Under the pieces are notes generated by a model that was given only the letters and a program-made list of their open reading frames with translations, ran no database searches and was not told where the DNA came from. From positions 1-9,420 of the IMG/VR virus record IMGVR_UViG_2695420763_000021: a stretch of DNA of 9,420 nucleotides; one strand, written 5' to 3'. This document shows, piece after piece, positions 1 through 9,420 of the stretch (the stretch's first letter is position 1; each line of letters begins with the position of its first letter). This DNA is from a virus (lineage: Duplodnaviria; Heunggongvirae; Uroviricota; Caudoviricetes). Made by a program: the position numbers and the translations under genes.

Positions 1-1167
1 ATGAATAGAATCTATCGCGTGATATGGAATTGCACTCTACAGGTATTTCAGGCCTGCTCGGAATTAACTCGCAGGGCAGGTAAAACATCGACGGTTAATT
101 TGCGTAAATCCTCTGGACTGACAACGAAATTCAGTAGATTGACGCTGGGTGTTTTGCTGGCACTAAGCGGTTCAGCGTCTGGTGCAAGTCTGGAAGTTGA
201 TAATGATCAGATTACCAATATTGATACTGATGTTGCTTATGATGCCTACCTGGTTGGCTGGTATGGCACTGGAGTGCTTAATATTTTGGCTGGCGGTAAT
301 GCCTCCTTAACCACTATTACTACCAGCGTCATTGGCGCTAATGAGGACTCAGAGGGCACCGTTAATGTTTTGGGTGGCACCTGGCGATTGTATGATAGCG
401 GAAATAATGCAAGGCCTTTAAATGTGGGTCAATCCGGAACGGGGACGCTGAATATTAAACAGAAAGGTCACGTTGATGGAGGCTATTTAAGACTAGGTTC
501 CTCGACAGGAGGCGTCGGGACGGTCAATGTTGAGGGAGAGGACTCTGTTCTGACGACCGAATTATTCGAAATAGGGAGTTACGGTACGGGCTCATTAAAT
601 ATTACGGATAAGGGTTACGTCACGAGTTCAATAGTCGCCATTTTAGGCTATCAGGCGGGCAGTAATGGCCAGGTTGTCGTTGAAAAGGGCGGTGAGTGGC
701 TAATAAAAAATAACGATTCCTCAATTGAATTTCAAATTGGTAATCAAGGAACGGGGGAAGCGACTATTCGCGAGGGTGGACTGATTACGGCTGAAAACAC
801 GATTATCGGTGGCAATGCTACCGGTATCGGAACCCTGAATGTGCAGGATCAAGACTCTGTCATCACGGTACGCAGACTCTATAATGGATATTTCGGTAAT
901 GGCACACTCAATATTTCCAATAATGGACTAATTAATAACAAAGAATATTCATTAGTGGGCGTTCAGGACGGTTCCCACGGTGTCGTCAACGTGACCGATA
1001 AAGGGCATTGGAATTTCCTCGGAACGGGCGAAGCTTTCCGCTATATCTATATCGGTGATGCTGGCGACGGTGAACTTAATGTCTCGCGTGAAGGTAAAGT
1101 AGATTCGGGAATTATCACTGCGGGGATGAAAGAAACAGGCACAGGCAACATTACTGTTAAGGATAAG
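1..1167 (+). pseudogene. Autotransporter (type Va) adhesin, 5' fragment: extended signal peptide plus passenger-domain repeats, 3'-truncated by IS2
   Basis: ATG at 1. N-terminus MNRIYRVIWN...SELTRRAGK has the extended-signal-peptide pattern of enterobacterial autotransporters, followed by hydrophobic LTLGVLLALSGSASG and repeated GTGxLNI / GNGTLNI / GIGTLNV passenger motifs. The native frame ends at codon 389 (1165-1167) and then reads 28 codons into IS2 before the stop at 1252-1254. No beta-barrel translocator domain is present. Confidence 0.8.
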
Positions 1168-1208
1168 TGGATTTGCCCCTATATTTCCAGACATCTGTTA
1201 TCACTTAA
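1168..1208. repeat. IS2 right terminal inverted repeat (IRR)
   Basis: Imperfect inverted repeat partner of 2457-2498; begins TGGATTTGCCCC. Confidence 0.8.
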
Positions 1209-2084
1209 CCCATTACAAGCCCACTGCCGCAGATATTCCCGTGGCGAGCGATAACCCAGCGCACTATGCGGATGCCATTCGTTATAATGCTCGAACGCCT
1301 CTGCAAGGTTCTTTGCTGCCGTTAACCCGTCTGGTTTGGGCATGATACTGATGTAGTCACGCTTTATCGTTTTCACGAAGCTCTCTGCTATTCCGTTACT
1401 CTCCGGACTCCGCACCGCCGTGTTCTTCGGTTCAAGTCCCAACATCCGGGCGAACTGGCGTGTTTCATTAGCCCGGTAGCATGAACCATTATCCGTCAGC
1501 CACTCCACTGGAGACGACGGAAGATCGTTGCCGAAGCGGCGTTCCACCGCTCCCAGCATGACGTCCTGTACTGTTTCACTGTTGAAGCCGCCGGTAGTCA
1601 CCGCCCAGTGCAGTGCCTCACGATCACAGCAGTCCAGCGCGAACGTGACACGCAGTCTCTCTCCGTTATCACAGCAGAACTCGAACCCGTCAGAGCACCA
1701 TCGCTGATTGCTTTCTTTCACGGCCACTCTGCCTGTATGTGCCCGTTTCGATGGCGGTACAGTAGGTTTTCGCTCAAGCAACAGCGCATTCTGGCGCATG
1801 ATCCGGTAAACACGTTTGGCATTGATCGCAGGCATACCATCAAGTTCTGCCTGTCTGCGAAGCAGCGCCCATACCCGACGATAACCATACGTGGGCAGCT
1901 CTCCGATAACATGGTGTATACGGAGAAGCACATCCGTATCATCAGTGTGACGACTGCGGCGGCCATCCATCCAGTCATCGGTTCGTCTGAGAATGACGTA
2001 CAACTGCGCACGCGACACCCGGAGACAACGGCTGACTAAGCTTACTCCCCATCCCCGGGCAATAAGGGCGCGTGCGCTATCCAC
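1179..2084 (-). CDS. insD: IS2 transposase OrfB (InsD), DDE integrase-like catalytic domain
   Basis: 301-aa ORF inside IS2. The translation (e.g. ...[18 protein letters not shown]...[11 protein letters not shown]...[18 protein letters not shown]) matches IS2 InsD as recalled. Its 5' end overlaps orfA in the -1 frame. Confidence 0.9.
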
Positions 2085-2407
2085 TTTTTTGCCCGTCCAT
2101 ATTCAACGGCTTCTTTGAGGAGTTCATTTTCCATCGTTTTCTTGCCGAGCAGGCGCTGGAGTTCTTTAATCTGCTTCATGGCGGCAGCAAGTTCAGAGGC
2201 AGGAACAACCTGTTCTCCGGCGGCGACAGCAGTAAGACTTCCTTCCTGGTATTGCTTACGCCAGAGAAATAACTGGCTGGCTGCTACACCATGTTGCCGG
2301 GCAACGAGGGAGACCGTCATCCCCGGTTCAAAGCTCTGCTGAACAATTGCGATCTTTTCCTGTGTGGTACGCCGTCTGCGTTTCTCCGGCCCTAAGACAT
2401 CAATCAT
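2042..2407 (-). CDS. insC: IS2 transposase OrfA (InsC), HTH DNA-binding subunit
   Basis: Start placed at the internal ATG 2407..2405 ([24 protein letters not shown]...), giving 121 aa. The track ORF extends upstream to 2452 but that reads through the IRL-proximal sequence. Confidence 0.88.
2084..2090 (-). other. A6G slippery heptamer for programmed -1 ribosomal frameshift (OrfA to OrfAB fusion transposase)
   Basis: Minus strand reads AAAAAAG at 2090..2084, inside the orfA/orfB overlap and at the 5' end of the orfB frame. IS3-family elements, including IS2, use this motif. Confidence 0.6.
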
Positions 2408-2456
2408 CTGTTCTCCAATGACTAGTCTAAAAACTAGTATTAAGACTATCACTTAT

Positions 2457-2498
2457 TTAAGTGATACTGGTTGTCTGGAGATTCAGGGGGCCAGTCTA
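2457..2498. repeat. IS2 left terminal inverted repeat (IRL)
   Basis: Ends ...GGGGGCCAGTCTA at 2498; partner of 1168-1208. Confidence 0.8.
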
Positions 2499-2696
2499 AG
2501 ATTCCCCGAAACGCTTCTCCATAAATAATTCATAGGCTGCTCGTTCATCCGATACTGCTGCCAGTGATGCCTGTGCAATTTTTAATGCGGTAAGCATGTT
2601 GTTTTGATCTTCATCGAGTCCGAACGGTATTTCATCCCGTGCTGACTCAATGCTGGTAATCGTGTTCTGTAACCATTCTTTGGTAAGAGTATTCAT
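2496..2696 (-). pseudogene. Hypothetical phage early protein, probably 3'-truncated by IS2 (66 codons remain)
   Basis: ATG 2696..2694 with AAGGTGA about 9 nt upstream. The frame runs straight into IS2, and its stop codon TAG (2498..2496) is the terminal 3 nt of the IS2 IRL. The N-terminal 45 aa are paralogous to the 155-aa ORF at 2892-3359. Confidence 0.5.
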
Positions 2697-2698
2697 AA

Positions 2699-2890
2699 CT
2701 ATTTCACCTTAATCTCAACATTTCGCAGCTTTAGCTCTACTGGCAAGTCTGACTTTCCTGTTAATGCTAATGCGAGATTTTCAGGAGTAATGAGAGCAGT
2801 TATTGTTTTCCCCATCGCCAGACGAATAATCATTCGTATCTCGCGATCGTCACATGCTCCCGGTCGAACAATTGATATTTGTCCGTTCAT
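2699..2890 (-). CDS. Hypothetical small phage protein (63 aa; alternative start at 2911 gives 70 aa)
   Basis: ATG 2890..2888 is preceded by AAGGAGA at about 6 nt spacing and sits 1 nt after the stop of the upstream ORF. The stop at 2701..2699 is followed 2 nt later by the next ATG. Confidence 0.5.
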   Translation of the reverse strand: MNGQISIVRPGACDDREIRMIIRLAMGKTITALITPENLALALTGKSDLPVELKLRNVEIKVK

Positions 2891-2891
2891 C

Positions 2892-3359
2892 TCACTCTCC
2901 TTTGATGCCAATGTTTACAGCCTGACAAGCCTCTTTGAGCACCCAGTCAACAGCGTCTTTCCATGCTCCGGTTTCGACTGGCGGATTTTCACTCTTAACC
3001 TGTTCATAGAAGCGCACCGCTTTAATCAATCCTTCGGGTGTCAGTGGCACAGGCTGGGCCGTGAATAACGCCTGAATTTCATAGTTCGGCCTGTCGTTGC
3101 AATCCTCTTTTGTCGGTACATATTTCCAGTCACCAACCCACGGCTTCTCCTGAAAGTTCGTAACGCCTTTTCTCACGTAGCGATATCGCCATGTCACCGG
3201 TTCGGCTTCCAGCGATGCCAGCGCGACTTTAAATGCGGTAAGTACGTTTTTAACCACATCGATTTTGAATACTATTTCATCACATACAAACGATTTATCG
3301 TCTACTACCGTTTCAATTCCGGTAATCGTGTTTTGTAGCCATTTGGTTAATTCAGCCAT
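2892..3359 (-). CDS. Hypothetical phage early protein (155 aa) with an N-terminal module shared with ORF 2496-2696
   Basis: 155-aa ORF. N-terminus MAELTKWLQNTITGIE...ASLEA aligns with MNTLTKEWLQNTITSIE...ASLAA of the 66-aa ORF, and the DNA is also about 80 percent similar over roughly 150 bp. The C-terminal part is Trp-rich and unique. Confidence 0.65.
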   Translation of the reverse strand: MAELTKWLQNTITGIETVVDDKSFVCDEIVFKIDVVKNVLTAFKVALASLEAEPVTWRYRYVRKGVTNFQEKPWVGDWKYVPTKEDCNDRPNYEIQALFTAQPVPLTPEGLIKAVRFYEQVKSENPPVETGAWKDAVDWVLKEACQAVNIGIKGE

Positions 3360-3490
3360 TTTTCATTACCGCCCTTTCGGGCGGTCTCCTGATGTTCTGA
3401 GAGTGCAGGAATCCCTCCGGTTAAGGATTTAATAAAATTCACTTCTGATTTAAATTTTTCAGTGTTTTGTTGTCAGGTGGTTTATCGCCT

Positions 3491-3802
3491 TTATGCTTCA
3501 ACCTTATTTCTCAGCCATACACAAACCGGACCATCTTCAGTGTCATGAATGGAACCAATGAACCAGCCTTCACCTTCCGGGCGCTCCGGTTTCCAGGAGG
3601 CAATATCGGGACCATCTGCGTCCAGATTAAAATCATCTTCATCCATAGTTCTGATGGTCCATTGAAGATTATTTCCCTCCATCCATGCGTTAAACTCTTC
3701 CGTTGAAATATGTTCTCTACCATCACAGAATTTTTCATATTCAGGATGCGTCCAGCAGCCATATTCATCACGTACTACTGGTATTTCTTTAATTTCATTC
3801 AT
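3491..3802 (-). CDS. Hypothetical phage protein (103 aa), acidic, Trp-rich
   Basis: ATG 3802..3800 with GGGAGA about 7 nt upstream. Overlaps the upstream ORF's stop by 8 nt. The translation looks protein-like (MNEIKEIPVVRDEYGCWTHPEYEKF...). Confidence 0.65.
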   Translation of the reverse strand: MNEIKEIPVVRDEYGCWTHPEYEKFCDGREHISTEEFNAWMEGNNLQWTIRTMDEDDFNLDADGPDIASWKPERPEGEGWFIGSIHDTEDGPVCVWLRNKVEA

Positions 3803-4049
3803 TTCTGTTCTCCCACGTTTTCAGACTTTCACCACAGAACGGACAAAATGAAACCCGCACTGGTGATTTAGAAAATTCACCGGAACGCAACATCACCAAA
3901 TCAGGGCCGCGAGTTAAACTCTCATTCCAGATTTTGTATATCAGCAGACCTTTTCGCGCCGTGTATTCAGCATCATGCTCAAGGGATTTTGCCAGTGCTG
4001 CACATGGTTCTATCTTATTGCCATTAATTTGGCATTTTGACTCACTCAC
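3795..4049 (-). CDS. Hypothetical small protein (84 aa) with a C-terminal CPFCG motif
   Basis: GTG start 4049..4047 is preceded by a strong AAGGAGG at 6 nt spacing and overlaps the upstream stop as GTGA. The track's longer 96-aa version also begins at a GTG (4085..4083) but lacks an RBS. Cys at positions 6, 16, 68 and 71 of the 84-aa product. Confidence 0.55.
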   Translation of the reverse strand: MSESKCQINGNKIEPCAALAKSLEHDAEYTARKGLLIYKIWNESLTRGPDLVMLRSGEFSKSPVRVSFCPFCGESLKTWENRNE

Positions 4050-4285
4050 TGGTTGCCTCCTTTGCGGATCTGCGCTGCGATGCACGAAAAAAAAGACTCT
4101 CGCGTATGACTGTTAAGAGCTGGCGCGAACGCCGCGTTAAGAACGGCAGCATCACAGCCGTCATCGATATAGAGCGCAATTTTTTTCTCTAGGCGTGCTT
4201 TAGCTTCCTGCAACTGCATACCCCGGCACGCACGCGGGATATACTCAGCAATTTGAGCGATAGATTTTTCGTTCTGTTTAAACAT
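4046..4285 (-). CDS. Hypothetical small protein (79 aa)
   Basis: ATG 4285..4283 with GAGGTGA 5 nt upstream. Overlaps the upstream ORF by 8 nt (ATGTTTAA). Confidence 0.55.
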   Translation of the reverse strand: MFKQNEKSIAQIAEYIPRACRGMQLQEAKARLEKKIALYIDDGCDAAVLNAAFAPALNSHTRESFFSCIAAQIRKGGNQ

Positions 4286-4481
4286 GCTTCACCTCGATAG
4301 GCTTGATGGTATCGATCAGCAGTCGGCGGCGAGTATTTTCTGCAAAGTGGCGGCGTCCGGTTTCTTTGTGGTAAAACTCGTTTTTTCCGACGACCCACAT
4401 CCGCTTTGTCTGGTGCAGTTTTTTTACCTGCGGACCGTCTCGGGTGATAACAATTCCCGTATGAGTTTTTATCACGCTCAT
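4278..4481 (-). CDS. Hypothetical small basic protein (67 aa), in the position occupied by yfdT in CPS-53
   Basis: ATG 4481..4479 overlaps the yfdS-like stop as ATGA. Basic composition. Confidence 0.5.
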   Translation of the reverse strand: MSVIKTHTGIVITRDGPQVKKLHQTKRMWVVGKNEFYHKETGRRHFAENTRRRLLIDTIKPIEVKHV

Positions 4482-4840
4482 TTCTTATTCTCCGGTGCTT
4501 TTGGCATTACTGCCCAGTGAGTGATATTGACGTTTTCAAGGTCCCCGACCTGAAATGTCCACTGCCATTCTCCGGTTTCTTTTTGTCCCCAGGTGTACCA
4601 GAGAGAACGCCAGCCAATCAGCCAGCCTTCTCCGTTAGCATCAAATAACAGAACACTTTCATTTGCTGGCGGCAGTTCAGCTGACACTGGCATTATTTTG
4701 TTTTCCAGTGCCGCACATTTAGCTTCAAGCGCATCGAATTTACGTACCAGGTACTCAGCATTTGTTTCATTCACTTTCAGATCTCGCGGTACACATTTCC
4801 CGCGAAGAAACCCTTCCATTTCGAAAACATTCATGCGCAT
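4478..4840 (-). CDS. yfdS: YfdS-like phage protein (120 aa)
   Basis: 120-aa ORF immediately downstream of, and overlapping, the HD-domain gene. Its size and position match CPS-53 yfdS as recalled. An in-frame ATG two codons in (4834) overlaps the upstream stop as ATGA. Confidence 0.55.
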   Translation of the reverse strand: MRMNVFEMEGFLRGKCVPRDLKVNETNAEYLVRKFDALEAKCAALENKIMPVSAELPPANESVLLFDANGEGWLIGWRSLWYTWGQKETGEWQWTFQVGDLENVNITHWAVMPKAPENKK

Positions 4841-5367
4841 TTGCGTAACTCCGATAACTCGTTAAAACGTTCCATAAACATCCCGTAGGCATGGCCTGGT
4901 GACAGTGGAATAACTTTGAACATCTCTGTTGCCGGGATGCCTTCCAGTACAGGCCAGAAAGAGCCATCATCAAGCCCGAGATCGCGGCGTTCGGTTGCCA
5001 GCATAATGAGATCGGCATATTTCACTGGCGTGCTCATAACAGGAGGTAACCCGTATTTCTCACGGATTACGGCGTCTATTTTTTCTTCCATCCGTTTATA
5101 GTCAGGAAGAAGTCGTTTCAGTGGCGCGGGGATGTCCTGGCAATATGCTTCTGTTGCATCATGCATTAACGCTTCAAAAGCAAATTCCTGCGGCACCAGC
5201 TGGCTGCAAAGCACCGCATGCTGGGCGACACTGTAGAAGTGTGAAAGATGTCCTGCAAAGCGACAGATATTTGAAAGGGAAACTGCGATATCGTTAATCA
5301 CGATGTCGTCTTTATTTATCTTGTCATAATAAAAATGCTTCCCGGAAAAAGTTTTAATAAATGACAT
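4831..5367 (-). CDS. yfdR: HD-domain phosphohydrolase, YfbR/YfdR-like 5'-deoxynucleotidase family (178 aa)
   Basis: Start at ATG 5367..5365 with GGAG in GTGGAGAACGAA upstream; the track ORF begins 4 codons earlier at a GTG. Motifs H-x27-HD and DIPAPLK (SVAQHAVLCSQL...ALMHDATEAYCQDIPAPLK) are typical of HD-domain 5'-deoxynucleotidases. At 178 aa it matches CPS-53 YfdR in size and gene order. Confidence 0.75.
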   Translation of the reverse strand: MSFIKTFSGKHFYYDKINKDDIVINDIAVSLSNICRFAGHLSHFYSVAQHAVLCSQLVPQEFAFEALMHDATEAYCQDIPAPLKRLLPDYKRMEEKIDAVIREKYGLPPVMSTPVKYADLIMLATERRDLGLDDGSFWPVLEGIPATEMFKVIPLSPGHAYGMFMERFNELSELRKCA

Positions 5368-5461
5368 TTCGTTCTCCACTTTATATGCGCTGCACCGCGC
5401 TGAATTCTGCTAAAAGGAAGCTCTCACCATCCGGTGATTATTGAGTTAATTACGTTTCCAT

Positions 5462-5483
5462 AAATGCCCCCGCAGGGGCATTT
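5462..5483 (-). terminator. Perfect 9-bp stem / 4-nt loop hairpin 12 nt downstream of the yfdQ-like stop; possible partial intrinsic terminator or attenuator
   Basis: AAATGCCCC-CGCA-GGGGCATTT. On the minus-strand RNA the stem ends in UUU followed by AUGGAAA, so the U-tract is short. Confidence 0.4.
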
Positions 5484-5495
5484 GCAGTAATGAAA

Positions 5496-6320
5496 TCAGG
5501 CGGTGAAAGTACCAATAAAGGTTTCTACTTTGCTGTCTTTGAATTTCTCAACAAGCAGATCACGAAATTCGTTAGCCATTTCTTCCTGCATCGCTTCCAG
5601 CTGAATAATGCGCAGAACCAGTACAGGACGATCGCCAGTGATAATGCTGAGGCGTAATTTAAACGGACGTTCTTTCAGGCCTTCAAACGGAACGCATTTA
5701 AATTCAAATGCCACTGGCATAATGTCTTTGGTTTTCGCTTCGACAGACTCCATCAGGGAGCGTTTGCCGCTGAAGTCATTGTCTTCAAAATCAGCGGTCT
5801 GGTTTGCTTCAATTGTGATTTTACGGACTGCAGCAGCCGCTTTGGTTGCCTGAATGGTGTCACCATTAGCATCAAAGCCCACAAGGTAGTCGGCCCAGTC
5901 TTCAATCCATTCTGCCAGTGACTTCTGGGAGTTACGCTCGCCATTAACAGACAACAGAGCAGAAAACGGTGCTGTCTTTTTCAGTTTGAGGGTGGCGGTG
6001 TTATCTGCGTGACCTGGTTCATCAATAGTACCCAGGTTAAGCACACTGACGGCTCGCATATTATCGGCATCGATAAAGCAGCGGGTGCCTTCATCTGCAA
6101 GATCTTTAGAATAACGGGTAAAGTCATCGATGCTGGCAGTGGAAAGCGCACCACGGAAACGGAAGCGATTTAAATTAAATTTTTCCAGATCATGAATGCG
6201 GAAATTCTCAGGCAATGCCACAGCATCGGCACCAATCTTACTGATAATTTCATTAACACCCTGAGCAGAAATAAGGGCATGGATTTGATTAATTGCGGTT
6301 GCGTCTAAGTTCTGAGACAT
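5496..6320 (-). CDS. yfdQ: YfdQ-like phage protein (DUF2303-type, 274 aa)
   Basis: 274-aa ORF with ATG 6320..6318 and GAGGA 7 nt upstream. Its size and position (between the yfdP-like and HD-domain genes) match CPS-53 yfdQ as recalled. Confidence 0.65.
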
Positions 6321-6385
6321 AATAAGTCCTCACTATATAAAGATATTCAGTGATGAGATAAATAATCAGTTAATTAAGAACGATA

Positions 6386-6748
6386 TTAATGACCTGCTGC
6401 GCGGAGTTTTCCGTCAGGTTCACCGGCAAGAGTCAGTAATTGTCCCTGGTCTTCCTGCAGAATAGTCAGGCGACCACCGCGATTGACATACATCGGCGTT
6501 TCGGTGGTGTCTTCTTCGGAAATTTTCCCGCGGTTAGTCGGGCGAACATATGAGAGTTTGTGTTTTATTTTCACACGGTTCTCATCAAACGGTTCGATTT
6601 CCAGGTTGAGCGAGACCTTACCTTTGGTTTTCGTGTTCATCACACCGGAAGCGACTTCACTGAGAACTGCGCCGATTTTGGTTTCAAATACGCCGCCGTC
6701 CAGCTCCCCGATAAATGCCTGCACATCAGTACTGCGTTCGCTAGCCAT
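6386..6748 (-). CDS. yfdP: YfdP-like phage protein (121 aa), first gene of the pL operon
   Basis: Start chosen at ATG 6748..6746 (MASERSTDVQAF...) because AGGAG lies 7 nt upstream. The track's 182-aa version starts at an upstream GTG, and the extra N-terminal 62 codons are Cys/Arg/Pro-rich and look non-coding. Confidence 0.55.
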   Translation of the reverse strand: MASERSTDVQAFIGELDGGVFETKIGAVLSEVASGVMNTKTKGKVSLNLEIEPFDENRVKIKHKLSYVRPTNRGKISEEDTTETPMYVNRGGRLTILQEDQGQLLTLAGEPDGKLRAAGH

Positions 6749-6796
6749 TTTGCTGCTCCTCATCATATCGACCCTGCAAGGTCGGTTAGTTTCTCC

Positions 6797-6895
6797 ACAA
6801 AACAGAGAAGAACACCTGCGGTGGCAGCCGCCCGGATGGATTGGGTTATGAGCCCGTCGTCCGGTGATGCTCTTCTCTGTTTTGTAAAAAGAGCG
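6797..6895 (-). promoter_or_regulatory. Structured element in the pL leader: boxA-like CGCTCTTTTTA followed directly by a 15-bp perfect inverted repeat with a 59-nt loop
   Basis: Minus strand reads CGCTCTTTTTA at 6895..6885. Stem arms are 6871-6885 (TCTTCTCTGTTTTGT) and 6797-6811 (ACAAAACAGAGAAGA), exact reverse complements. A second 10-bp inverted repeat (6893-6902 / 6922-6931) lies just upstream. Confidence 0.35.
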
Positions 6896-7089
6896 GTACC
6901 AGCCGGAAGCAAGTGTACAAACTGGTACCGCCAAAGCAGTGGCTGTTGTGGTGACCGGTGCTGATCTCCGGCTTGCGGTTATTTCAGACTCTCACGGGCG
7001 TTTAATTGCCCCGCCGAACAGCTCTTTTCCGCAATAGCTGCAATGTCTTTCGCGCATCAGCCTGCGCATTCACCACAACTCTAAAAACA

Positions 7090-7119
7090 AATGTAGGATA
7101 TCCAACATGTAAGTGTCAA
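7090..7119 (-). promoter_or_regulatory. pL-like early-left promoter (-35 TTGACA 7119..7114, 18-nt spacer, -10 TACATT 7095..7090)
   Basis: Minus strand reads TTGACActtacatgttggatatccTACATT, nearly identical to the pR module at 7894-7923. The -10 is embedded in operator OL-a. Confidence 0.6.
7091..7108. promoter_or_regulatory. Repressor operator OL-a (18-bp palindrome ATGTAGGATATCCAACAT)
   Basis: Exact reverse complement of OR-c (7905-7922). Half-site consensus ATGTWGGAT. Overlaps the pL -10. Confidence 0.65.
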
Positions 7120-7125
7120 GAGTTT

Positions 7126-7143
7126 ATGTTGGTTATCCTACAT
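7126..7143. promoter_or_regulatory. Repressor operator OL-b (ATGTTGGTTATCCTACAT)
   Basis: 17 of 18 matches to the operator consensus; lies just upstream of the pL -35. Confidence 0.6.
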
Positions 7144-7160
7144 AAAAAGATAGGCTCATA

Positions 7161-7185
7161 AAAAAACCGGGGATACCCCGGTTTT
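7161..7185 (-). terminator. Rho-independent terminator downstream of the repressor gene (bidirectional hairpin)
   Basis: AAAAAA-CCGGGG-ATA-CCCCGG-TTTT. On the minus strand a GC stem is followed by UUUUUU, 20 nt after the repressor stop and before OL/pL. Confidence 0.7.
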
Positions 7186-7205
7186 GCGATAGTGAGGAAG
7201 ATGTG

Positions 7206-7859
7206 TCAAAAATCCATTATTACTTGTTTGACAAGACCAACTATTCTGCAGTTTTCACCGCATTCAATAGTTTTATAGTTAGGATTTAGTGGGACGAGAT
7301 ACCTGTTCGGCCAGTCCTCAACAAATTTTTTGAGTGTCGCTTCTTGCCCACCATTGATATGGGCAACAACGATTTTTCCGTTAATACACTCTGTATCAAT
7401 AATATCTGGCTCTACGATAACGATAGAACCTTCTGGTATCGATGGTGAGCCGAGGGGATTGGTCATTGAATCACCACGGACCCGTAGTGCAAATGCCATT
7501 TCTGATACAAGGGCGGTAGTATAAACCCACTCTTCAGCATCTTCTTTCCTGACACCAGGCTCCGTCATTGTCCATGAACCCGCCTGAACCCACGAGATGA
7601 GGGGGACTTTTTTAACTGCGAATATTTCAGGTTTTAGATTTATCTTTGGTTCAGGCGAGCCTTTTCCGCTAACAAGCCACAGAGGATCGCATTTAAGTGC
7701 GTTGGCTAGGGCTTGAAGGTTGGCTCCATTTGGTTGGTAGTCGTCCTTTTCCCATCCAGTAACCGTGACACGGTTCACACCAGTCAAATCAGCCAGTGCT
7801 TGTTGTGTCAGGTTCAGTTCTTTTCGCCTTTGGCGAATACGATCACTCATGTTCATCAT
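7206..7859 (-). CDS. CI-type prophage repressor: N-terminal HTH (XRE family) plus C-terminal S24 LexA-like autopeptidase
   Basis: 217 aa. HTH segment LTQQALADLTGVNRVTVTGWE. Ala-Gly cleavage-site context VQAG (as in lambda CI). Catalytic Ser in RVRGDSM and Lys in ATLKKF. The start ATG lies within operator OR-a, so the transcript is leaderless or nearly so, as for lambda pRM. Confidence 0.85.
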   Translation of the reverse strand: MMNMSDRIRQRRKELNLTQQALADLTGVNRVTVTGWEKDDYQPNGANLQALANALKCDPLWLVSGKGSPEPKINLKPEIFAVKKVPLISWVQAGSWTMTEPGVRKEDAEEWVYTTALVSEMAFALRVRGDSMTNPLGSPSIPEGSIVIVEPDIIDTECINGKIVVAHINGGQEATLKKFVEDWPNRYLVPLNPNYKTIECGENCRIVGLVKQVIMDF

Positions 7860-7875
7860 GTAGGCAATCCTACCA
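7858..7875. promoter_or_regulatory. Repressor operator OR-a (ATGTAGGCAATCCTACCA), overlapping the repressor start codon
   Basis: 15 of 18 matches to the palindromic consensus. Confidence 0.5.
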
Positions 7876-7882
7876 CATGCTC

Positions 7883-7900
7883 ATGTAGGATTCTTGACAT
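7883..7900. promoter_or_regulatory. Repressor operator OR-b (ATGTAGGATTCTTGACAT), overlapping the pR -35
   Basis: Perfect left half-site ATGTAGGAT; the right half is degenerate and contains TTGACA. Confidence 0.5.
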
Positions 7901-7923
7901 TGGCATGTTGGATATCCTACATT
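7894..7923 (+). promoter_or_regulatory. pR-like early-right promoter (-35 TTGACA 7894-7899, 18-nt spacer, -10 TACATT 7918-7923)
   Basis: Consensus -35, 18-bp spacer, 4 of 6 match in the -10. Lies about 30 nt upstream of the cro-like gene, whose RBS is GGGAGA at 7944-7949. Confidence 0.6.
7905..7922. promoter_or_regulatory. Repressor operator OR-c (ATGTTGGATATCCTACAT), overlapping the pR -10
   Basis: Perfect 18-bp palindrome-type site; reverse complement of OL-a. Confidence 0.65.
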
Positions 7924-7954
7924 TCTGCTTAACGTAATTTAACGGGAGACAGAA

Positions 7955-8152
7955 ATGCGGAAATCCGACGTGATTAATTATTTCGGCGGAGTTTGTAAAA
8001 CCGCCGAAGCCCTAGGTATTAAGCATCCGTCTGTTTCAGAGTGGCCTGAGATTATTCCTGAAGGCCGAGCGTACCAGTTAGAAAAAATTACTAACGGGAA
8101 ACTGAAAGTTGACGTGTCTTTATATCAAAAGACTAACAGTGCTGCGGCATAA
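7955..8152 (+). CDS. Cro-like HTH regulator (65 aa)
   Basis: First gene after pR and divergent from the repressor. INYFGG...KTAEALGIKHPSVSEW resembles lambda Cro ([25 protein letters not shown]). Confidence 0.75.
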   Translation: MRKSDVINYFGGVCKTAEALGIKHPSVSEWPEIIPEGRAYQLEKITNGKLKVDVSLYQKTNSAAA

Positions 8153-8179
8153 AAACACCACAGAAATGAGGAATTAACC

Positions 8180-8764
8180 GTGGGTAAAGAACCTGAATGG
8201 AAAGTTGATAAACAACCAGCATGGCTGGTGGCAGCAATACGAAGAACGATTGCTGATTTACCTCATGGCTATGAGGAAGCAGCAGAAATTCTTGGTTTGT
8301 ATAAATCTGATGATATCACCCCAGCAAAAGATCAATTGCATAACAGACTGCGTAGCGGTGGGGATCAAATTTTTCCACTTGAGTGGGCCATGGTTTTACA
8401 GGATGCCAGTGGTACCAGGCATGTAACAGATGCAATAGCCCGTCGTAGTAATGGGGTGTTTGTGCCGCTGGTGGTCATTGATGACATTGACAATGGTGAC
8501 ATTAATCAGCGGCTGATGGAGTCAATAGAATGGATTGGCAAGCATTCCCAGTACTTACGCAAGGCAACTGCTGATGGAGTTATTGACCAGGCTGAGCGTG
8601 AGCAAATCGAAGAGAACAGCTACCAAGTAATGGCGAAGTGGCAGGAGCATTTAACACTGTTATTTCGTGTTTTTTGTGCGCCGGAAAAGAGTAACGCCCG
8701 CGAGTGTGCAGCTCCGGGCGTCGTGGCGTCGATTGCTTCTGGTTGTGGAGAAACTAACGCATGA
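8180..8764 (+). CDS. CII-like phage regulatory protein (194 aa; possibly the phage CII/CP76-type family)
   Basis: GTG start 8180 with GAGGA 7 nt upstream. It sits directly after cro as cII does in lambdoid phages. The family assignment is from memory of CP76-type CII proteins, not a verified alignment. Confidence 0.5.
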
Positions 8765-9099
8765 ACAGTTTAACAACACACTACCGTCGCTCGCAACTGA
8801 TTGCGCTTCCTGTACCGGGTGGAAAAGCGAAGGTGGAGTATTGCTATGCAGTGAATGTACCAGGTGACAGGGAAATTGTAACCCACAGATTTGCAGAGTG
8901 GGCTGTGGGTGATTTCAACCGGCAGAAGGAGACAGTCCTTTGCAACAAGTTAACCGCTGGTTCAAAGATCACTACGGAGTGCCCGTCAGAGTCATTCGTT
9001 GGGAACCGGAAACACAACGGGTTATCTACCTCCGCGAAGGCTATGAGCATGAGTGCTTCAGTCCGCTCGAACAGTTTCGTCGTAAATTCAGGGAAATAG
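8761..9099 (+). CDS. Hypothetical protein (112 aa as called); the C-terminal half looks out of frame, so a frameshift is possible
   Basis: ATG 8761 overlaps the cII-like stop as ATGA. The first 55 to 60 residues look protein-like. The remainder ([53 protein letters not shown]) is Ser-rich and low-complexity, while the -1 frame over the same DNA reads as a well-formed peptide. Confidence 0.4.
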
Positions 9100-9119
9100 A
9101 GGTCGGTCATGAGCACTAA
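8940..9119 (+). CDS. Candidate small protein (59 aa) in the alternative frame, TTG start
   Basis: AAGGAGA at 8926-8932 lies 7 nt before TTG 8940. The translation (M)[58 protein letters not shown] is protein-like. Its stop TAA 9117-9119 overlaps the downstream ATG at 9109. Confidence 0.3.
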
Positions 9120-9420
9120 ATTAACCGGCTATGTATGGGATGGTTGCGCAGCGTCAGGCATGAAATTATCCAGCGTGGCAATTATGGCCCGCCTGGCTGA
9201 TTTCAGTAATGACGAAGGTGTGTGCTGGCCATCAATTGAAACCATTGCCCGCCAGATTGGCGCGGGGATGAGTACCGTCAGAACGGCTATCGCACGGCTG
9301 GAAGCAGAAGGCTGGTTAACGCGTAAGGCGCGTCGCCATGGCAACCGCAATGCGTCGAATGTTTATCAGCTTAACGTTGCGAAGCTTCAGGCAGCGGCAT
9401 TTTCTCAACTGTCAGATTCT
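9109..9420 (+). CDS. Phage replication-initiation protein (O-like, N-terminal HTH DNA-binding domain), 5' partial; continues beyond the window
   Basis: ATG 9109 with GAGG 8 nt upstream; the frame is open to the end of the window (104 codons). [73 protein letters not shown] is typical of the HTH replication-protein N-domain found after cII in lambdoid prophages. Confidence 0.65.
   Translation, partial: MSTKLTGYVWDGCAASGMKLSSVAIMARLADFSNDEGVCWPSIETIARQIGAGMSTVRTAIARLEAEGWLTRKARRHGNRNASNVYQLNVAKLQAAAFSQLSDS

Follow-up and report, generated by a model that had tools for sequence, protein, structure and literature searches.

A yfdPQRS module near-identical to that of CPS-53 lies behind a putatively CI-controlled pL promoter and a conserved structured leader in a lambdoid prophage without N

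In Escherichia coli K-12, genes of the CPS-53 (KpLE1) prophage have been connected with chromosome replication: multicopy yfdQ and yfdR together with either yfdS or yfdT suppress over-initiation and inhibit normal initiation at oriC (Noguchi & Katayama 2016, PMC4776307), yfdQ is genetically required for this phenotype, and YfdR binds DnaA domain I in a Phe46-dependent manner (PMC4776307). The authors of that study proposed, by analogy to lambda P, that the proteins once aided phage growth (PMC4776307). Genes of the yfdPQR type are common in the early-left operons of lambdoid phages, and the last two genes of the published list have no known function (PMC12315714). In HK022, a lambdoid phage without N, a structured cis RNA termed put lies near the start of the pL transcript (PMC9378689), and specialists have speculated on RNA-based antitermination in phage LLS, a relative of the prophage described here. 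We analyzed a 9,420-nucleotide (nt) stretch of Caudoviricetes DNA (IMG/VR record IMGVR_UViG_2695420763_000021, positions 1 to 9,420; the whole stretch is hereafter the window), which contains the start of an early-left (pL) operon belonging to an SfV/ST64B/mEp460-type lambdoid prophage without an N gene. It carries a near-identical copy of the CPS-53 yfdPQRS module and, between pL and yfdP, a structured leader RNA that is conserved across enterobacterial genera (Table 1). The module consists of known, very common, annotated genes whose position at the head of the early-left operon has already been published; of all this, only the leader RNA between pL and these genes is potentially new.

A first-pass annotation, made from the sequence of the window alone, had recognized a yfdP-yfdQ-yfdR-yfdS-like module by its gene order and product sizes. 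Alignment of the products to K-12 YfdP, YfdQ, YfdR and YfdS placed this beyond resemblance, with at most four differences in any of the aligned proteins (Table 1), and the order and lengths (120, 274, 178 and 120 amino acids, aa) are those of b2359-b2362 in CPS-53 of strain MG1655. The coordinates in the annotation were exact, and among its lengths that of YfdP was off by one residue (121, correctly 120). Common to the window and K-12 are also the overlap of yfdR with yfdS and a spacer of ~130 nt between yfdQ and yfdR. YfdQ matches PF10065 over residues 7-272, that is, over its full length, at 307.7 bits (gathering cut-off 26.6); the match of YfdS to DUF551 is weak, scoring 19.9, below the cut-off of 22. 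The hairpin in the yfdQ-yfdR spacer marks the boundary between a conserved yfdP-yfdQ pair and a replaceable yfdR, and the equivalent site is annotated as 'terminator' in phage Ayreon. Two alternative gene models were rejected. A longer YfdP (182 aa, from TTG at 6934) is broken in frame by indels in other genera, and the region concerned is a covarying RNA; natural YfdP-YfdQ fusions are represented by a few proteins, all from E. coli and 97-99% identical, and are probably frameshifts or gene-calling artefacts.

The promoter that faces the module is well supported, on the evidence of its sequence, as a pL under CI-type operators. It adjoins the terminator of cI, is of sigma-70 type, is directed away from cI and has hexamers with 10 of 12 matches to consensus; the hexamers and their spacing are identical to those of pR (7894-7923), and the pL and pR regions form a 40-nt inverted repeat that is 85% complementary. 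The putative operator, an 18-bp palindrome (ATGTWGGATATCCWACAT), occurs three times in the window against 0.01 expected, once over the pL -10, once upstream of the pL -35 and once over the pR -10. In the translated repressor, GDSM and LKK catalytic motifs can be recognized, together with a QAG site of the cleavage type. The CI/Cro switch looks intact, as the first-pass annotation had held; the same cannot be said of the prophage, which is not demonstrably whole because an IS2 element cuts the distal early-left operon. That annotation had also described the module as the first thing transcribed from pL and directly repressed by the CI-like repressor. An operator-flanked pL does face the module, but both halves of this description are oversimplified, since a structured leader of 335 nt, with a conserved terminator-like hairpin and U-run, precedes yfdP.

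This untranslated leader, which runs from the predicted transcript start near 7083 to the yfdP ATG, folds far better as a whole than shuffled sequence (z score, -4.7). Its promoter-proximal segment shows no significant structure, and in relatives other sequence or small genes stand in its place. The next element is a hairpin with a GC-rich stem of 10-13 bp and an unusually long loop (~15-19 nt), followed by UCUUUUU; it has the sequence characteristics of an intrinsic (Rho-independent) terminator and is called terminator-like here. Four of the nine stem pairs tested by covariation show compensatory changes, and a GC-rich hairpin abutting a U-run precedes the downstream RNA in 35 of 37 species loci, its stem sequence varying among loci. 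The remainder of the leader is occupied by a three-way-junction RNA of ~100 nt and a small hairpin that lies just ahead of the ribosome-binding site of yfdP. In a set of 83 E. coli loci that are near-identical but differ in their immunity regions, leader homology starts at ~7082 in 23, at 6953 in 28 and at ~6933 in 22; the mosaic breakpoints thus coincide with the transcript start or fall a little upstream of the terminator-like hairpin. One nut candidate in the leader, the boxA-like CGCTCTTT of the E. coli version, was discarded because other genera do not conserve it.

Conservation of the leader structure was assessed in an independent MAFFT alignment of 12 leaders from six genera, with the structure predicted by RNAalifold and with slid-partner and 500-shuffle controls. 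The consensus comprised 47 pairs, 15 of them with compensatory double changes; 94.1% of the alignment cells paired, compared with 38-48% when partners were slid, and none of the 500 shuffles reached the observed values. A degenerate 21-mer taken from the apical loop was then searched in 185,579 species genomes and was found at 50 places, of which 38, from ~20 enterobacterial genera, were confirmed at E <= 1e-8 by R1, a 102-position covariance model of the junction RNA; the remaining 12 are from unrelated phyla, and chance alone would be expected to give roughly as many. In an alignment of 34 distinct sequences (~20 genera) fitted to R1, 96.7% of cells paired and 20 of 38 pairs showed compensatory changes, against 42-55% pairing and 2-7 compensatory pairs in the slid controls. 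The frequent G-U pairs indicate that the transcribed strand of the junction RNA is the pL strand.

The RNA is not tied to one gene. Of the 38 loci, 23 have it ~40 nt ahead of yfdP-yfdQ, and in 14 of the 37 that could be judged (in the last, the RNA is at the end of the locus) it stands directly before yfdR or unrelated genes, as in L138 (122-222), L103 (3340-3444) and L110 (7574-7674). A specific association with yfdP is thereby ruled out, and since the RNA also heads operons without yfdP and yfdQ, it is a feature of the operon head. A single copy is present per locus, except for a weaker second match (29 bits) at 1781-1868 of the Klebsiella locus L088, which sits in a 1.2-kb gene-free gap between cI and yfdP. 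The RNA is absent from K-12 and HK022, the R1 search gave no pR-side copy in the window or in L001, and the leaders of the window and six relatives had no match in Rfam 15 at E <= 1. Two loci labelled as Chryseobacterium sp. (L113) and as a Geobacteraceae metagenome-assembled genome (L126) carry an enterobacterial-type leader RNA followed by yfdP-yfdQ-yfdR at 56-67% protein identity, and are likely to be contamination or mis-binning of enterobacterial prophage DNA.

Table 1. Features of the window, in order of position. Folding energies and z scores refer to the segment named; compensatory pairs are those changed on both sides.
Feature	Position	Strand	Evidence or remarks
5' part of ESPR-type (ECSE_1600 family) autotransporter gene	1-1168		
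IS2, complete, 1331 bp	1169-2499		
Leftward phage gene run	2496-6748	-	
DUF551/YfdT-like open reading frame (ORF) truncated by IS2	2496-2696		
yfdS orthologue, 120 aa	4478-4840	-	116/117 aligned residues identical to K-12 (BLASTP); phrog_583, E 8e-82
yfdR orthologue, HD-domain protein, 178 aa from annotated ATG	4831-5367	-	175/178 identical to K-12 (BLASTP); phrog_318, E 4e-110
yfdQ-yfdR spacer hairpin, AAATGCCCC-TGCG-GGGGCATTT	5462-5483	-	9-bp, GC-rich, folds; no clear U-run; spacer 128 nt
yfdQ orthologue, DUF2303, 274 aa	5496-6320	-	270/274 identical to K-12 YfdQ (BLASTP); PF10065, E 8e-92; phrog_210
yfdP orthologue, 120 aa	6386-6748	-	119/120 identical to K-12 YfdP (BLASTP); phrog_204; PF27127 in precomputed annotation
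yfdP Shine-Dalgarno sequence, GAGGAG	6761-6756	-	
Small hairpin just 5' of the yfdP GAGGAG	6769-6784	-	helix 7 of consensus; 3/5 pairs compensatory
Three-way-junction RNA, ~100 nt	6790-6890	-	-51.2 kcal/mol, z -7.2; model R1, 107.7 bits
Intrinsic-terminator-like hairpin, arms GGCGGTACCAG...CTGGTACCGC	6932-6892; U-run 6890-6886	-	-21.2 kcal/mol, z -4.8
Promoter-proximal variable segment of leader	6933-7083	-	fold z -1.2, not significant; no convincing ORF
Predicted pL with OL1 and OL2	7090-7143	-	-35 TTGACA 7119-7114; 18-nt spacer; -10 TACATT 7095-7090
OL1 (over pL -10)	7091-7108		ATGTWGGATATCCWACAT site
OL2 (upstream of pL -35)	7126-7143		ATGTWGGATATCCWACAT site
Terminator after cI, AAAACCGGGG-TAT-CCCCGGTTTT then TTT	7160-7185	-	-15.2 kcal/mol, z -4.2
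CI-type repressor gene, 217 aa	7206-7859	-	HTH_3 and Peptidase_S24 (Pfam E 4e-25 and 1e-15); N-terminus DicA-like
OR/pR region and cro	7859-8152	+	pR -35 at 7894, -10 at 7918-7923
OR1 (over pR -10)	7905-7922		ATGTWGGATATCCWACAT site; with OL1 and OL2 the only ones
cro, P22_Cro family	7955-8152	+	E 8e-22
YmfL/CP76 'cII-like' gene	8180-8764		followed by a DUF4222 gene

Our preferred reading, to which we assign a probability of roughly 0.55, is that a near-identical CPS-53 yfdPQRS module stands at the head of its native CI-controlled pL operon, is gated by the leader, and serves as an early brake on host replication. In the lysogenic state, the S24-type CI would bind OL1 and OL2 and keep pL off, and RecA-stimulated cleavage of CI would allow transcription to start near 7083. 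The pL transcript would then have to pass the terminator-like hairpin and U-run (6932-6886) and cross the three-way-junction RNA (6890-6790) before continuing through yfdP, yfdQ, the spacer hairpin, yfdR and yfdS. We infer that a structured leader in this position adds a control step after initiation, which could be attenuation, antitermination, RNA processing (by RNase III) or control of translation. Because the proteins are 98-99% identical to those of K-12, the published data on DnaA binding and inhibition of initiation should carry over: YfdR would bind DnaA domain I, YfdR, YfdQ and YfdS would dampen initiation at oriC by competing with DiaA and DnaB, and this dampening would give an induced phage an early brake on host replication, with YfdP and YfdQ as the conserved core of the module. 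The account that the first-pass annotation gave of the yfdQRST replication literature and of the binding of YfdR to DnaA was correct. The early host-takeover role that it suggested agrees with what the authors of PMC4776307 had already proposed, so that its interpretation is their hypothesis and not a new one, and the functional part of our own reading likewise repeats a published, still unproven hypothesis.

A number of observations weigh against this reading. The replication effect was seen only in multicopy, deletion of the K-12 cluster gave no phenotype, yfdP is dispensable for the replication phenotype, and the authors themselves cautioned that the effect 'might be an artifact' of overexpression (PMC4776307). 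In the window, homology stops at the last codons of yfdS and no yfdT was found after it; a partial YfdT-like N-terminus is present only in the ORF truncated by IS2 (2496-2696). An efficient terminator-like hairpin would leave little pL transcription to enter yfdP, and no antiterminator was found: the ORF list and family searches gave none of N type between pL and yfdP, where the only ORF is the yfdP extension with its unconserved frame. With its distal operon truncated by IS2, the prophage may also be decaying. Finally, unrelated genes take the position of yfdR in Kosakonia and Salmonella relatives, and yfdP-yfdQ without yfdR also occurs, after abc2. Since yfdP-yfdQ is kept where yfdR is replaced or absent, the conserved core is this pair, whose function may differ from DnaA inhibition, and the DnaA story is possibly not the main function of the module.

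The best-surviving alternative concerns regulation. Expression of the operon might be governed mainly by the leader RNA and not by CI alone, the terminator stopping most pL transcripts and the junction RNA acting as a cis-regulator, either as an RNA antiterminator that replaces N or as an RNase III or translation switch; judged from the sequence, we consider this a serious possibility, although short of even odds. It is favored by the conservation, with covariation, of junction RNA and U-run hairpin alike across ~20 genera, by the G-U pairs that fix the pL strand as the one transcribed, by the 14 of 37 judgeable loci in which the element heads operons lacking yfdP and yfdQ, by the absence of an N homologue, and by the speculation of specialists that an RNA carries out antitermination in the related phage LLS. 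Set against these points are the lack of any evident alternative antiterminator pairing and several features that do not suit a put-like rescue. The terminator precedes the junction RNA, the reverse of the order that such a rescue would need, and no second copy was found in the pR operon; both argue against a put-like mechanism. In addition, a search of the HK022 pL region with R1 (E <= 1) gave nothing, and the sequences look unrelated to putL, so that the element was rejected as a put-like RNA. Tentatively, and with more doubt than conviction, we suggest that the hairpin and junction RNA constitute an undescribed class of cis-regulatory RNA that controls early-left transcription or translation in lambdoid phages without N, and that could be the N substitute of the LLS type.

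A second alternative, which we hold to be less likely than not, takes YfdP and YfdQ as the real unit, unrelated to DnaA and perhaps a large oligomer acting on DNA, in phage replication or packaging, or against a host defence, with YfdR as an add-on and the replication block as a side effect of overexpression. The persistence of the yfdP-yfdQ pair where yfdR is replaced or absent and the artefact caveat raised in the DnaA paper itself (PMC4776307) speak for it. So do two observations on YfdQ: its homologue in the PDB, entry 9o7m 'YfdQ Protein' (E 1e-44), holds 36 chain copies, and a DUF2303 protein was unexpectedly detected in virions of Burkholderia phage JC1 (PMC9144972). The genetic requirement for yfdQ in the replication phenotype points the other way, as do the lack of a PADLOC defence hit for the module, the failure of a literature search to find a paper describing 9o7m, and the judgment of specialists that hidden recombinases are unlikely among these genes (PMC12315714). 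AlphaFold models of YfdQ and YfdP (confidence score pLDDT, 78 and 71, respectively) gave no informative fold match, and sequence and profile searches of the PDB returned nothing for YfdP.

The first-pass annotation had placed YfdR in the YfbR-type 5'-deoxynucleotidase family. The metal ligands (pattern H...HD...D) and the catalytic Glu are indeed kept: H69-D70, E73, D78 and D119 match, in the alignment, the HD, E, D and D residues of E. coli YfbR, and relatives from five other genera show no variation at these positions; H50, which MAFFT left unaligned to YfbR, is likely to be the first histidine as read from the sequence. Membership in the family did not hold, the scores being below its cut-offs (Pfam PF12917, 24.3 versus 25.9; NCBIfam NF003009, 19.9 versus 122). 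The nearest solved structure is that of the HD protein Atu1052 (PDB 2gz4, E 2e-13), and the only activity of YfdR shown by experiment is DnaA binding. That the module mainly reshapes the nucleotide pool, with YfdR acting early after induction as a 5'-deoxynucleotidase on deoxynucleoside monophosphates, is improbable: the intact and invariant HD, E and D residues, the homology to Atu1052 and the PHROG and RefSeq labels ('deoxyribonucleoside 5' monophosphate phosphatase' or '5'-deoxynucleotidase') favor it, whereas YfdR does not reach the curated cut-offs for YfbR, the database names stem from inference, and the nucleotide affinity of YfdR is reported to be much below that of YfbR, its function being termed 'elusive' (literature cited in PMC4776307).

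The module is widespread. A 2.8-kb stretch covering it was matched in 3144 of 5426 complete E. coli genomes, 2034 of which reached a coverage of at least 80%, and RefSeq labels the matched genes yfdP, yfdQ and yfdR. Another 63 matches came from phage records, among them mEp460, cdtI, Ayreon and Stx2c or Stx2k phages. Both mEp460 and Ayreon show cI, a gap, yfdP, yfdQ, yfdR and a yfdS-type gene in succession, and this layout recurs in prophages of Leclercia, Klebsiella, Kluyvera, Serratia, Mangrovibacter and Kosakonia. In the Salmonella locus L085 (571-3747), yfdP-yfdQ lies deep in a P22-like early-left operon, directly after kil and abc2 (anti-RecBCD), and this operon has neither the leader RNA nor yfdR. 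Two points are of some practical use. Copies that keep the native promoter, operators and leader lost by K-12 are the right material for testing the published hypothesis under natural expression, and the leader RNA is a concrete candidate for the control of the early-left operon in a large group of lambdoid phages without N, a matter that the literature has left open.

At its distal end, the phage gene run of the window is interrupted by IS2, whose end at 2499 lies inside the DUF551/YfdT-like gene (2496-2696). Beyond this point relatives carry genes for a 3'-5' exonuclease and a PrtN-type excisionase, where the window has the autotransporter fragment, and the IS2-prophage junction was found in 0 of 5426 complete E. 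coli genomes. Direct repeats at 2549-2677 and 3197-3343 (55-68 nt, 71-76% identity) correspond to an N-terminal module (…KEWLQNTIT.IE…) common to the neighboring early-left ORFs 2496-2696 and 2892-3359, and this region resembles K-12 YfdT. In addition, a perfect 16-mer (TTGTGGAGAAACTAAC; chance expectation ~0.01) occurs twice in the same transcriptional orientation, at 6785-6800 (-) in the 3' flank of the leader hairpin and at 8743-8758 (+) in the last codons (CGETN) of the YmfL-like gene of the pR operon; a joint left by recombination or a signal common to both places may explain it.

Compared with described systems, YfdR has in common with YfbR and Atu1052 the metal and catalytic residues of the HD domain, but just ~40 residues of YfdR and YfbR align by BLASTP, at 33% identity. 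Like put of HK022, the RNA of the window is a structured cis element near the start of the pL transcript of a phage without N; unlike put, it is larger (~100 nt plus the hairpin), lies ~190 nt from the transcript start and follows a terminator. The arrangement resembles lambda pL-nutL-N-tL1 in its CI-repressed leftward promoter past the cI terminator, its early terminator and its long hairpin before the first gene, and departs from it in that the window has no N homologue and no recognizable boxA or boxB, its pL and terminator enclose no protein gene, and its operon opens with yfdP and yfdQ where lambda has an antiterminator. Much closer are the early-left operons of the SfV, ST64B, LLS, mEp460, cdtI and Ayreon type, which show, at 97-99% DNA identity, the same succession of cI, pL, leader, yfdP, yfdQ, yfdR and DUF551-type gene; they differ in immunity, only 5 of 83 related loci having the cI and pL of the window, and in that IS2 has removed from the window the distal part that would hold the exonuclease and PrtN-type excisionase genes. 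CPS-53 of K-12 agrees with the window in the identity, order and sizes of these genes, and carries yfdT after yfdS where the window has none. Its homology to the window begins ~25 nt before the yfdP ATG, and nothing is left in it of the cI/cro region, pL or the structured leader, whereas the window retains the repressor, the operators and the leader RNA.

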